Source of the DNA: Byssovorax sp.
GTDB lineage: Bacteria; Myxococcota_A; Polyangia; Polyangiales; Polyangiaceae
DNA: 32,000 nucleotides
Direction of reading: 5' to 3'
Assembly (NCBI GenBank): GCA_040006075.1
Contig: JBDTXR010000004.1
Coordinates: 21,457 to 53,456 of the forward strand
Shown here: positions 11,640 through 13,322 of the stretch, piece by piece
Position numbering within the stretch: position 1 is the stretch's first letter
Layout of the letters: every line of letters starts with the position of its first letter
Notes under the pieces: generated by a model
What the model saw: only the letters and a program-made list of their open reading frames with translations
Told to the model about the DNA's origin: nothing
Databases searched by the model: none
Made by a program: the position numbers and the translations under genes

Positions 11640-13322
11640 ATGACCAGCTATCTGAAGCATTTCACGGCGCTCTTCACGCCGCAGTCGGAGAAGGCGCGCG
11701 CCGATCAGGTGGTGAACAGCGCGGGCGGGTTCGGGTTCGAGCTCGACAAGTGGGCTCGGCTCGACCGGTGGCTGGTCCTCGGCGTCGAGGGCGCCACGTA
11801 CTACGCGTCGGAGCAGAAGCTCACGCGGGACAACGCGATCTCGCTCCTCGAGTGCCTGAGCGAGAATGGCCCTCGCACCGTCGCGCGGATCACCGAGATC
11901 AGCGTCGCCGGTCGGGCACCGAAGAACGATCCGGCCATCTTCGCTCTGGCGATCGCTGCGGGTCACGAGGATCCGGCGACGCGCAAGGCGGCGCTCGAGG
12001 CGCTGCCCAAGGTCGCTCGCTTCGGTACGGATCTCTTCCACTTCGTTCGCGACGTGGAGGGGTTCCGCAAGTGGGGTCGGGGTCTGCGTCGGGCCATCGC
12101 GGCCTGGTACAACGACAAGCCGGCCGACAAGGTCGCTTACCAGGCGATCAAGTACCAGCAGCGGGATGGATGGAGTCACAAGGATCTCTTGCGGCTCTCC
12201 CACCCGACGGCGGCCACTCCCGAGCACGACGCGCTCTACCGCTGGATCACCGGCGGGCTCGAGGGCCTCGGGCGCGAGAGCGCGCGGGGCAAGGCGATCG
12301 CGCCGACCGAGCTGCCGAAGCTGATCCGAGGGTTCGAGTCGCTCCGGGCCTCGACCAACCGCAAGCAGGTCATCGCGCTGATCCGGGAGCACCGGTTCAC
12401 GCACGAGATGCTGCTCTCGGAGTGGAAGAACGATCCGGAGATCTGGGAGGCTCTGCTGGAGGACATGCCGCAGACCGCCCTGATCCGGAACCTCGGCAAG
12501 ATGACCGCGATTGGCCTCCTCGCGCCGATGAGCGAAGCGTCCCGCAAGGTGGCGCGACAGCTCACCGAACCCGGGCGCCTGGCGCGTGCGCGCGTTCATC
12601 CGATCGCTCTCCTCTCGGCCCTCAAGGTCTATGAGCAGGGGCACGGTGAGCGCGCGCAGCGCCGGGCGAACGCTCTCTCGTGGTCGCCCGACCGGCAGAT
12701 CGTCGACGCGTTGAACGACGCGTTTTACCTGGCCTTCAAGGAGGTGAAGCCGACCGGGAAGAACCATTTGCTCGCCCTCGACGTCTCGGGCTCGATGGCC
12801 TCGGGCGCGATCGCCGGTATCCCCGGCCTCACGCCCCGGGTCGCGAGCGCGGCCATGGCGATGGTGACGGCGCGAGTCGAGCCGGAGTTCGCCGTGGTGG
12901 GCTTCACCGCGGCCGCAAAGGGCTACGGTGGTCAGTGGGGCGGCGGCGACGTCGGCCTCACCCCGCTCCCGATCTCGCCGAAGCAGCGGCTCGACGACGT
13001 GATCAAGCTGCTCTCCGGCTTGCCCATGGGCGGCACCGACTGCTCGATGCCGATGATCTGGGCCACGAAGAACCGAGTCGTGGTCGACACCTTCGTCATC
13101 TACACGGACAACGAGACGTGGGCTGGCCAGGTTCACCCGTTCCAGGCGCTGCGCGACTACCGGCAGAAGATGGGGCGGCCCGCGAGGCTGGTGGTCGTCG
13201 GCATGACGGCGACGGGCTTCTCGATCGCCGATCCGAAGGACCCCGGCATGCTCGATGTCGTGGGCTTCGACTCGGCCGCTCCGCAGGTGATCTCGGACTT
13301 CACCCGCGGTGACATCAGGTAA
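11640..13322 (+). CDS. rsr: Ro60-related protein Rsr (TROVE domain + vWA domain)
   Basis: 560-aa ORF from ATG 11640 with GGAGGG just upstream. TROVE-like blocks are GFGFELDKWARLDRWLVLGVEGATYYASEQKLTRDNA and YQQRDGWSHKDLLRLSHP. The C-terminal vWA domain has the MIDAS motif in LLALDVSGSMASG, and GGTDCSMPMIWA. The listed ORF start at 11445 overlaps tRNA-His copy 2 and is not used. Confidence 0.85.
   Translation: MTSYLKHFTALFTPQSEKARADQVVNSAGGFGFELDKWARLDRWLVLGVEGATYYASEQKLTRDNAISLLECLSENGPRTVARITEISVAGRAPKNDPAIFALAIAAGHEDPATRKAALEALPKVARFGTDLFHFVRDVEGFRKWGRGLRRAIAAWYNDKPADKVAYQAIKYQQRDGWSHKDLLRLSHPTAATPEHDALYRWITGGLEGLGRESARGKAIAPTELPKLIRGFESLRASTNRKQVIALIREHRFTHEMLLSEWKNDPEIWEALLEDMPQTALIRNLGKMTAIGLLAPMSEASRKVARQLTEPGRLARARVHPIALLSALKVYEQGHGERAQRRANALSWSPDRQIVDALNDAFYLAFKEVKPTGKNHLLALDVSGSMASGAIAGIPGLTPRVASAAMAMVTARVEPEFAVVGFTAAAKGYGGQWGGGDVGLTPLPISPKQRLDDVIKLLSGLPMGGTDCSMPMIWATKNRVVVDTFVIYTDNETWAGQVHPFQALRDYRQKMGRPARLVVVGMTATGFSIADPKDPGMLDVVGFDSAAPQVISDFTRGDIR

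Follow-up and report, generated by a model that had tools for sequence, protein, structure and literature searches.

The window analyzed here, a 32,000-nucleotide stretch of the Byssovorax sp. contig JBDTXR010000004.1, contains the gene rsr, which encodes the protein Ro60 (Rsr), inside an array of transfer RNA (tRNA) genes. This genuine Ro60/Rsr probably belongs to an old and conserved island of the Polyangia type, in which a unit of rsr and Y RNA genes is nested in a tRNA array of the kind known as an L-array, together with an HNH gene. Three classes of element, namely linear Y RNAs, a tRNA-shaped Y RNA and a hairpin in the rsr leader, have one helix in common and are strictly linked and co-oriented with rsr, including in unrelated genomes. 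The identity of Ro60, its conserved nesting in the array, the sequence-invariant helix with covarying stems around it, the linkage of the elements to rsr and their junctions with tRNA 3' ends were established by computation, and the functions assigned to these RNAs are predictions from it. The protein and the array are of known kinds. To judge from the literature that could be searched, the known Ro60-Y RNA system has new forms here, in the Y RNA of tRNA order, in the linear Y RNAs fused to tRNAs and in the mimic in the leader. In that literature, no paper was found that ties Ro60 or Y RNAs to myxobacteria or to bacterial tRNA arrays, and no report was found of tRNA-order Y RNAs or of an rsr leader mimic.

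The rsr gene, its tRNA array and the Y RNA candidates

The 560-residue protein encoded by rsr (Table 1) is a genuine Ro60/Rsr orthologue. The search with Pfam models matched a TROVE domain at residues 25–327 (PF05731, 2.4e-44) and a C-terminal vWA domain (PF25045 vWA_Ro60, 6.1e-65). The translation includes LALDVSGSM, and the DVSGSM of the MIDAS (an adhesion site that depends on a metal ion, DxSxS) was invariant in the protein alignment A6. The top solved structures, matched over nearly the whole length with E-values of ~1e-124 to 1e-121, were human and Xenopus Ro60 (PDB 9nen and 1yvp, ~1e-124) and D. radiodurans Rsr (2nvo, 2e-121). The NCBIfam Rsr model matched with 543 bits, short of the 900 that its strict cut-off demands. 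The closest Ro60 relatives came from Polyangiaceae, with 92% identity for a Byssovorax metagenome-assembled genome (MAG) and 67–77% for Sorangium, Chondromyces, Minicystis and Polyangium. The Pfam, NCBIfam and PDB matches thus agree with an earlier note on this stretch, which had read the 560-residue product as a TROVE and vWA protein with the DVSGSM motif. The stem-loop that follows the rsr stop codon would be the 3' end of the rsr mRNA or a processing hairpin; a hairpin resembling it is present in the related locus L022 and in Sorangium.

ARAGORN called 34 tRNA genes, all on the plus strand, between positions 9890 and 16973, with 11 upstream and 23 downstream of rsr. The same note had described rsr as flanked on both sides by tRNA genes of its own orientation, and this is what the scan returned. 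A relaxed Rfam search added the tRNA-like genes for Thr(GGT) and Ser(GCT) given in Table 1, and all 20 amino acids are covered once the Rfam-only genes count in. The array comprises 34–37 tRNA genes within 7.1 kb including rsr, or ~5 tRNAs per kb, and several of them score low. Besides rsr, the HNH gene is the sole protein gene conserved in the island, and it was found in 21 loci at 46–96% identity (tblastn). The window flanks are ordinary chromosomal genes of ~70% G+C.

The tRNA array is of a known type, an L-array with the hallmark HNH gene, because its density, its size and the IscB/Cas9-type HNH gene match this type. Confined to one strand, it passes the L-array threshold of at least 20 tRNA genes and at least 2 per kb (PMC4758250), and it has the near-complete amino-acid coverage and the associated HNH gene that were described for L-arrays (PMC8421152, PMC5966550). 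L-arrays occur in many phyla and are reported as horizontally spreading, and the array of Anabaena is induced by translational stress together with the HNH gene and rtcB (PMC4758250, PMC5966550, PMC8421152). In contrast to Anabaena, where the linked RNA-repair gene is rtcB, this window lacks rtcB, and unlike here, Ro60, Rsr and Y RNAs go unmentioned for bacterial arrays in the same three papers. A likeness in gene placement comes from archaeal tRNA clusters, where a TROVE-domain gene lies inside 20 of 29 clusters (Morgado and Vicente 2019, PMC6333295). These clusters belong to another domain of life, and that study describes no Y RNAs and proposes no mechanism. The Salmonella rsr-yrlBA-rtcBA operon, which is tied to tRNA damage and repair (PMC7790460), also encodes rsr together with Y RNAs. 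It differs from the present locus, which is without rtcB, rtcA and rtcR and has tRNA genes instead of repair enzymes. No RtcB, RtcA or RtcR domain was found in the 20 window open reading frames with coding-like G+C content at third codon positions (GC3), as the earlier note had stated for rtcB and rtcA. That note had set the gene apart from the usual rsr-Y RNA-rtcBA context; this stands for rtcBA and fails for the Y RNAs, whose candidate genes share the strand of rsr and are no farther from it than 120 nt upstream and 900 nt downstream.

The position of rsr inside a tRNA array, which the earlier note had pointed out, is real and conserved. Among 26 related genome loci surveyed, 22 have rsr within a same-strand tRNA array, at protein identities from 92% down to 53%, and the layout extends to Haliangium and Kofleriaceae at 53% identity. 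Array size ranges from 7–14 tRNAs in Sorangium to 34–38 in Chondromyces and several MAGs. The loci without tRNAs by ARAGORN were the Polyangiaceae MAGs L017 and L018 and the Bacteroidota locus L023. The chromosomal flanks are those of the window in the closest relative alone; with the other loci compared, no flank synteny was found, and the window has just rsr, the HNH gene and the RNA genes in common. The linear Y RNAs, the tRNA-shaped Y RNA and the leader helix all recur, with strong covariation, across Polyangiaceae, Haliangium and Kofleriaceae.

Four array spacers encode candidate linear Y RNAs (Ya', Ya, Yb and Yc). Each begins where a tRNA has its 3' end, and each contains a predicted Ro60-binding helix of the canonical bulged-C kind. 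Weak Rfam matches to the nematode sbRNA family RF01656 at 11518–11587 and 13726–13797 served only as a lead, and RF00019 had no match in the window in this search. Nematode sbRNAs are homologues of Y RNAs. The non-tRNA spacers have the motifs GGGCCGGAG, GUGGGUUAUC/AAC and CUCUUUGCCCG in common. Ya reads GGACGGGUCG..GCUCGGUUAUC..CCGAGC..UUCAUCCGUCC and ends 54 nt before the rsr ATG, whereas Yb reads GGCGGAC[C]GGAG-CUCGUGGG-UUAAC...CCCACGGG-CGCUCUUUGCCCGCC, with the bulged C in brackets. Yc has the 5' motif GGCGGGCCGGAG..GCUGGGUUAAC and the 3' motif CCCAGC..CUCUUUGCCUGUCC, as in the other linear Y RNAs. Yb and Yc form the Ro60-type bulged-C helix as CGGGC[C]GGAG / CUUUGCCCG, and Ya forms it as GGACGGGU[C]G / UCAUCCGUCC. 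In vertebrate Y RNAs, Ro60 contacts the bulged-C helix GGUC[C]GA / UUGACU, and bacterial Y RNAs carry a GNCGAAN0-1G motif and a YUAY motif (PMC4201824). The 5' strand of the linear Y helix is this GNCGAAN0-1G motif, and UUAUC corresponds to YUAY. The former reads GCCGAAG in Sorangium and GUCGAAG in L017, and the variants in the window are GCCGGAG, GACCGGAG and GUCGCUG.

The end stem with the bulged-C helix is shared by Ya, Yb and Yc with D. radiodurans Yrn1, metazoan Y RNAs and nematode sbRNAs, and the upper stem GUGGG/CCCAC followed by UUAUC counts as a further likeness. The loop of Yc contains a T-arm-like hairpin, GAGGUUCAAAUCCUC, as does Yrn1. On this feature Yc may be regarded as Yrn1/YrlA-like, although it is less firmly supported than the other Y RNAs. 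In contrast to the known RNAs, Ya and Yb are much shorter (~68 nt), and the linear Y RNAs of the window appear to be joined to tRNA gene 3' ends and not singly transcribed.

A covariance model of the linear Y RNAs (R1), which was built from eight spacers, gave 52 matches in the window and 26 loci, 49 of them on the rsr strand. Each genome locus had at least one match, except L015 and L026, and this includes the tRNA-free loci and the Bacteroidota locus. In the tRNA-free L017, L018 and L023, the matches lie downstream of rsr, near its 3' end. In the family alignment, 87% of the cells were paired, compared to 33–50% in the slid controls, and double changes occurred in 15 of 18 pairs. When the filters were switched off, the four best matches in 8.6 kb of the window were Yb (75 bits), Ya, a part of Yc and Ya', and the next one scored 11 bits. 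The start of a linear Y match was located -3 to +5 nt from the called 3' end of a tRNA in 34 of 47 cases, and most of the remaining matches follow degenerate tRNAs missed by ARAGORN. Conservation of Ya extends to Sorangium, Chondromyces and Byssovorax, among which its upper stem covaries, and Yc has an orthologue in L022. Ya' is part of a 99-nt tandem duplication (D10) of tRNA-His and the adjoining Y sequence (11243–11341 and 11423–11521, 88% identity). Therefore, the tRNA-Y unit duplicates as one piece. The same duplication is present in L022, where Ya' is conserved. At the position equivalent to that of the GC-rich hairpin after Yb, Sorangium has a hairpin followed by a U tract.

The tRNA-shaped Y RNA candidate, Yd ('tY RNA'), has a 7-bp acceptor stem GCAGAUG/CAUCUGC, a D arm and a T arm (GUAGCUCAGUCUGGUAGAGC and GCGGGUUCGAAUCCCGC), the discriminator U and an encoded CCA. 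Its extra part of ~63 nt consists of an upper stem, CCGUCUUC/GAGGACGG, that extends the anticodon stem, and of a closed Ro60-type helix, CUUUGCCCG / CGGGC[C]GGAG, in which the bulged C is kept. The Ro module is followed by GGUUAUC, a small hairpin and the T arm. Pairing was examined in A5, a structure-blind MAFFT alignment of 21 tRNA-shaped units from 11 loci. In A5, 95.4% of the cells were paired, compared to 42–49% when slid, and double changes were observed in 19 of 31 pairs (acceptor stem 7/7, D stem 2/4, upper stem 6/8, T stem 4/5). The Ro helix varied on one side at most, with no pair changed on both sides, which is the pattern expected of a sequence-specific protein site. A shuffle control of the upper stem was weak, as many copies share CCGUCUUC/GAGGACGG, and the column-wise counts in A5 are the better test. 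The MAFFT alignments A3 and A4, which contained the closed module alone, were too shifted to model and were replaced by a regular-expression and pairing scan and by full-length units (A5). The model of the tRNA-shaped Y RNA (R2) had a bimodal score distribution, with 43 matches of 100–140 nt at 52–122 bits, all on the rsr strand, and at least one match in each of 27 myxobacterial-type loci.

In the Polyangiaceae MAG L017 (11690–13820), which is without a canonical tRNA near rsr, two linear Y RNAs with the GGGUCGAAG motif are followed by nine tRNA-shaped ones in a row. This array appears to be made entirely of Y RNAs.

Table 1. Elements of the rsr island in the window, in order of position
Feature	Coordinates	Strand	Description and evidence
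Array, upstream half	9890–11519	+	11 tRNAs: Tyr, Asn, Lys x2, Gln, Asn, Thr, Glu, Phe, His x2; ARAGORN and Rfam tRNA
Ya', duplicate linear Y RNA-like gene	11340–11407	+	Directly after CCA of first tRNA-His; R1 17.0 bits; fold z = -2.2
Ya, predicted linear Y RNA	11520–11586	+	Directly after CCA of second tRNA-His; R1 31.7 bits; fold z = -5.0
rsr leader hairpin, predicted mimic of the Ro60-binding helix	11607–11633	+	UUUGCCCGGG-UUU-CCGGGC[C]GGAGGG; regular expression and RNAfold
rsr (Ro60/Rsr)	11640 (ATG)–13322 (TAA)	+	560 residues; TROVE ring and vWA with MIDAS DVSGSM
Stem-loop, 11 bp	13327–13354	+	5 nt past the rsr stop, without U tract; read from sequence
tRNA-Arg(CCT)	13362–13436	+	tRNA gene scan
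Yd, predicted tRNA-shaped Y RNA	13445–13582	+	R2 96.9 bits; ordinary tRNAs at most 49.5 bits
tRNA-Trp(CCA)	13655–13726	+	ARAGORN; 3' end abuts Yb
Yb, predicted linear Y RNA	13727–13795	+	Abuts tRNA-Trp; R1 75.1 bits
GC-rich long hairpin after Yb	13811–13872	+	Fold -49.9 kcal/mol, z = -5.6
tRNA-Ala(CGC) and tRNA-Asp(GTC)	13878–14063	+	ARAGORN; 3' end of tRNA-Asp abuts Yc
Yc, predicted longer linear Y RNA	14064–14191	+	Abuts tRNA-Asp; fold z = -2.0; R1 18.1 bits, 3' part only
Array, downstream half	14196–16001	+	19 ARAGORN tRNAs and Rfam-only tRNA-Thr(GGT)-like gene, 14272–14344
HNH endonuclease, IscB/Cas9-type HNH domain	16115–16618	+	Pfam HNH, HNH_5; NCBIfam IscB, Cas9d HNH region
Array end	16787–16973	+	tRNA-Ser(GCT)-like gene, 16787–16870; tRNA-Gln(TTG), 16900–16973; ARAGORN, Rfam

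The hairpin in the rsr leader

The hairpin in the leader of rsr repeats the Ro60-type helix, and its GGAGG is the Shine-Dalgarno sequence, located 7 nt before the rsr ATG. A survey by regular expression and RNAfold detected this module in 25 of 27 Myxococcota-type loci, where it ends 11–26 nt before the start codon. Its loops and stem extensions vary by lineage, whereas its core is constant and the same as that of the Y RNAs. We predict autoregulation because the Ro60-type helix of the leader overlaps the Shine-Dalgarno sequence: the overlap suggests that Ro60 may bind the leader of its own mRNA and block the ribosome, resulting in negative autoregulation. Ribosomal proteins and threonyl-tRNA synthetase autoregulate by mRNA mimicry of their RNA target. 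In these systems, as here, a copy of the binding site in the own leader overlaps the ribosome-binding site; in contrast to them, regulation of rsr is deduced from the sequence only. We know of no Ro60 that was shown to autoregulate in this way. With the leader mimic, feedback control would be proposed for a Ro60 gene for the first time.

The hairpin could instead serve as a 5' stabilizer, as a processing signal of an mRNA that is cut from a tRNA precursor, or as a structure for ribosome access, and would then be no Rsr operator. We consider this possible, although on balance improbable. It would fit a simple GC-rich hairpin near the 5' end of a presumably processed mRNA, and also L016, L017 and L027, where the Shine-Dalgarno sequence lies ~10 nt beyond the hairpin, without overlap. 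However, the stem and its unpaired flanks (UUUG...C-GGAG / GAAA) repeat the binding helix of the Y RNAs, including the bulged C, and do so across lineages with different loops and stem extensions. Moreover, a search of both strands over half a megabase returned the strict motif almost nowhere but in the Y RNAs and the rsr leader. The reading of the hairpin as a putative Ro60 operator is therefore kept below.

In Streptomyces phage EGole (L031, 7935–7961), the leader of the Ro-like gene ends in AAAGGGUCGAAAGAAAUG, with a GNCGAA motif at the ribosome-binding site. The motif may have come about by chance or may be a further case of a leader mimic.

Ro60 loci of phages and the origin of the island

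Ro-like genes were found in 356 phage records, with at most 49% identity to the product of rsr in the window. In EGole, the Ro-like gene lies in a loose tRNA-rich region and adjoins an HNH gene, and in mycobacteriophage Pleione it lies 3 kb from two tRNAs. These actinophage genes bear out the statement in the earlier note that tRNA-rich mycobacteriophages encode a Ro60 homologue.

The two RNA models were applied to 80 phage-like Ro60 loci from a viral collection (33–70% G+C). A tRNA-shaped Y RNA was detected in 25 of them (38 R2 matches, all on the rsr strand and within ~2.5 kb of rsr), and a linear Y RNA of the R1 type in 17 (20 matches, all on the rsr strand and beside rsr). Since the matches lie strictly beside viral rsr, they provide an independent validation of both models. 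At least five same-strand tRNAs within 6 kb were present in only 4 of the 80 loci. These results indicate that the conserved unit is rsr with its Y RNAs, and that the tRNA array is one setting of this unit and not a requirement. A scan of IMG/VR by the RNA motif alone yielded 20 loci, nine of which had strong R2 matches. In five of these nine, Ro60 was encoded in the same short locus, on the strand of the R2 matches.

One source of these loci, a 427-kb IMG/VR contig of 39% G+C (L032, minus strand, ~1800–1430, and L056), encodes a Ro60 with 53% identity. It carries a tRNA-shaped Y RNA (99.8 bits) and also a Yrn1-like linear Y RNA, in which a stem encloses a tRNA-like body of D, anticodon and T arms, all of them among tRNA genes. 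The Ro60-binding core stays GC-rich within this AT-rich genome.

The island could also be a horizontally spreading L-array of phage or plasmid origin, in which rsr and the Y RNAs travel as a kit against tRNA-cutting toxins or translation stress. Its chromosomal position would then be uninformative on the Ro60 biology of the host, whereas the mechanism proposed below would be compatible with it. We rate such an origin as unlikely but worth retaining. For L-arrays, both horizontal spread and the carriage of an HNH gene have been reported (PMC8421152, PMC5966550). In line with mobility, conservation between genera is limited to rsr, HNH and RNA genes, with flanks common only to the closest relative. 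Two IMG/VR contigs have the identical rsr-in-array layout. The 356 phage records, the EGole gene among tRNAs beside its HNH gene, and the 427-kb viral contig with Ro60 and a tRNA-shaped Y RNA point in the same direction. On the other hand, the window showed neither an integrase nor a phage structural gene nor an att-like repeat, and the phage Ro proteins are distant, with no more than the identity given above. Among the 120 closest proteins listed, the organism-named ones were all from Polyangiaceae, except for one MAG labelled Candidatus Nanopelagicales. Ro60 identity follows taxonomy, and tRNA order is common within the family. The lower G+C content of the island is explained by its RNA genes, as GC3 of rsr is 0.86, compared to 0.87–0.95 in the neighbouring genes. 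Finally, the tRNA-plus-HNH signature may in itself be what led to the 'viral' calls in IMG/VR. Our preferred reading remains that of an old, conserved island of the Polyangia type.

Relation of the Y RNAs and Ro60 to tRNAs

The known RNA that most resembles Yd is YrlA (RF02553). Its gene, like that of Yd, shares the strand of rsr and is no more than 4 kb away from it (Chen et al. 2014, PMC4201824). YrlA contains a GNCGAA-type Ro60 strand, a stem and YUAY, and Yd has GGUUAUC at the corresponding place. Both have tRNA-like D and T arms, an acceptor-like stem, and a stem in the position of the anticodon stem that leads to the Ro60 module. Their connectivity is also the same, from the D arm through the stem to the Ro module, YUAY, the V hairpin and the T arm. 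The order along the chain differs. In YrlA, the tRNA mimic is circularly permuted and its acceptor-like loop is closed (bioRxiv 10.1101/312249); the order is T, AS, D, and the RNA ends lie in the Ro-binding stem. The chain of Yd, in contrast, runs from the acceptor 5' strand through the D arm, the Ro module and the T arm to the acceptor 3' strand; its acceptor stem is open, and its Ro helix is closed by a loop and has both strands and the bulged C. Like Yd, the product of the M. smegmatis Y RNA has tRNA-like 5' and 3' ends at a 7-bp acceptor stem and a Ro60-binding stem. However, this product is a two-piece RNA from a cut permuted precursor, whereas Yd is a single chain encoded directly in tRNA order. 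By this comparison, Yd would be YrlA in unpermuted tRNA order. The Rfam YrlA model did not match Yd or the tRNA-shaped Y RNAs of L017 and L111. Matches of this model in the window at relaxed thresholds (18–31 bits) combined the T arm of one tRNA with the D arm of the next, one neighbour being Yd, and were rejected as a junction artefact. Tandem tRNAs are reported to yield such false YrlA matches (Chen et al. 2014, PMC4201824).

The tRNA-shaped elements could also be tRNA genes with an intron-like or mobile hairpin insert, either as pseudogenes or as precursors that yield a normal tRNA. The Rfam tRNA model does match the tRNA-shaped orthologues with 42–49 bits and an insertion of 54–66 nt, some copies have a 7-nt anticodon-like loop after the insert (e.g., CUGUUAA in L019 and L017), and processing to tRNA-like forms was considered for YrlA (bioRxiv 10.1101/312249). 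Nevertheless, we regard an insert as very unlikely. The place and orientation of the insert are always constant, its invariant core matches the helix in the linear Y RNAs and the rsr leader exactly, and the anticodon arm is in many copies replaced and not just interrupted. Furthermore, the elements track rsr rather than tRNA arrays, and no bacterial enzyme is known to excise such inserts (bioRxiv 10.1101/312249).

The earlier note had suggested a functional link between Ro60 and the array, in which Ro60 either serves in the quality control of array-derived tRNAs or tRNA-like RNAs or is tethered by them. A link to tRNA-like RNAs made by the island is strongly suggested, because the island encodes predicted Y RNAs that abut tRNAs and a tRNA-shaped RNA with a Ro60-type helix. 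Action of Ro60 specifically on the array tRNAs does not follow, and quality control of these tRNAs received no specific support: L017 and L018 keep rsr and the Y RNAs without any tRNA, and most viral loci have fewer than five. The absence of any functional link, with rsr trapped in the array by chance and the spacer similarities being leftovers of tRNA duplication, is highly improbable and disfavoured: arrays do grow by duplication, the window has duplicated tRNA-His and tRNA-Asn segments, and tandem tRNAs give false YrlA matches (PMC4201824), but the layout is kept down to 53% protein identity, the spacer RNAs combine an invariant helix like that of a protein site with covarying stems, and these RNAs adjoin rsr in array-free genomes too.

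For an rsr-Y RNA unit nested in an L-array, we propose the following mechanism. The same-strand genes would give rise to multi-gene transcripts, from which the tRNA-processing enzymes would release tRNAs, Y RNAs and the rsr mRNA together, with RNase P acting at the 5' ends and RNase Z or RNase E at the 3' ends. Ro60 would bind the conserved helix of the Y RNAs, and the tRNA-like body of the tRNA-shaped Y RNA could be a handle for a tRNA-binding effector, as was proposed for YrlA. Excess Ro60 would bind the copy of this helix in the leader, where GGAGG forms part of it, and so shut off its own translation. The tRNA array may be the ancestral setting and a shared processing framework rather than an obligatory partner. 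The system may also have a role in the stress response, as is suggested by its likeness to L-arrays and to the Salmonella rsr-yrlBA-rtcBA operon (PMC7790460).

Several observations weigh against this reading. At gathering scores, Rfam detected nothing but tRNAs in the window, and all Y-type matches were below gathering: those to RF01656 scored 25.7 and 27.2 bits (the latter for Yb) against a gathering score of 38, and the best YrlA match scored 30.9 bits against 69 and lay on a tRNA-tRNA junction. R1 matched Yc only partly and gave modest scores for Ya and Ya'. Eight of the R1 matches and 21 of the 43 R2 matches are the sequences from which these models were built. An encoded CCA is present in only some tRNA-shaped Y RNAs, that of the window included. 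The leader hairpin could be a plain stabilizing or processing hairpin. A scan for sigma-70 promoters and terminators returned one promoter-like site, where 0.8 were expected, and is uninformative on co-transcription; this site (13639–13666) is not claimed as a promoter, as it overlaps the tRNA-Trp gene itself. Finally, the tRNA part of the island decays in Sorangium (7–14 tRNAs) and is absent in L017, L018 and most viral loci, which makes a functional dependence of Ro60 on the array tRNAs doubtful.

Our most far-reaching proposal is a tentative one: tRNA-order Y RNAs may be widespread and overlooked partners of Ro60 that are matured like tRNAs and represent an intermediate derived from array tRNAs, while Ro60 may limit itself through the leader mimic. 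Every myxobacterial rsr locus examined had candidate tRNA-order Y RNAs, and so did ~30% of the sampled phage-like Ro60 loci. If the proposal is true, these RNAs would be processed by RNase P and RNase Z, would have a CCA end and perhaps be charged, and would present Ro60 to the tRNA-handling machinery. Y RNAs would then go back to tRNA genes in arrays whose anticodon stem grew a Ro60-binding helix, and not to tRNA dimers. Two wider questions are concerned, what the effector of bacterial Y RNAs is and where these RNAs came from; according to the current idea, YrlA, the permuted mimic, came from tRNA dimers. The locus offers a concrete evolutionary intermediate, an unpermuted tRNA-order RNA with a Ro60-type arm among real tRNAs, and L017 offers an array that appears to consist wholly of Y RNAs. 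Yd is thus a substrate for direct tests of maturation, of the CCA end and of charging. The unpermuted form also accounts for the reported scarcity of Y RNAs in delta-proteobacteria, as searches for permuted RNAs had to drop matches that overlap tandem tRNAs, and tRNA-shaped Y genes are currently annotated as tRNAs with odd insertions, or missed.

Additional features were observed in and around the array. The structured 138-nt spacer between tRNA-Glu(CTC) and tRNA-Arg(ACG) (14841–14978, plus strand) has a clean terminal 9-bp hairpin; conservation of its 5' part extends to L022 and Sorangium, and it is not a Y RNA by R1. A repeated spacer element on the plus strand (9973–10055 and 10840–10920) lies upstream of each tRNA-Asn and consists of a hairpin, CUCUGACAUCCGAAC and a second hairpin. 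A CUCUGACAA(C/U)CGA core, without sigma-70 spacing, was found at the equivalent place in L014, L016, L001, L022 and L025. An open reading frame of 62 residues, MT(L/P)R(P/L)TNDQPL..KKPT.WD..., occurs twice on the plus strand (9125–9313 and 10294–10482), with ~80–85% DNA identity and in-frame 6-nt indels, and has no Pfam or NCBIfam match. It is followed by a strong hairpin, GAAGGCCGCC...GGCGGCCTTC, and hairpins were located at 9349–9392, 9784–9827 and 10519–10562. Similar large spacers with the GAAGGCCGCC...GGCGGCCTTC hairpin are present in L022 and L014. In the MAG locus L016, a 3-kb cassette (14595–17314) interrupts the tRNA array and encodes an ARPP-1 domain protein and a 583-residue protein without a family match. 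The ARPP-1 family is linked to conflict systems.

Beside the array, a full-length gene for 50S ribosomal protein L3 (17689–18357, minus strand; TIGR03625, 228 bits, above the cut-off) stands solitary, outside any S10-type operon, and is common only to L022. One possibility is a paralogue of rplC, such as a copy for resistance or stress. In the chromosomal flank, a deoxyhypusine synthase-like gene of 433 residues (25267–26568, minus strand; Pfam DS, 1.2e-30) is unrelated to the rsr island.

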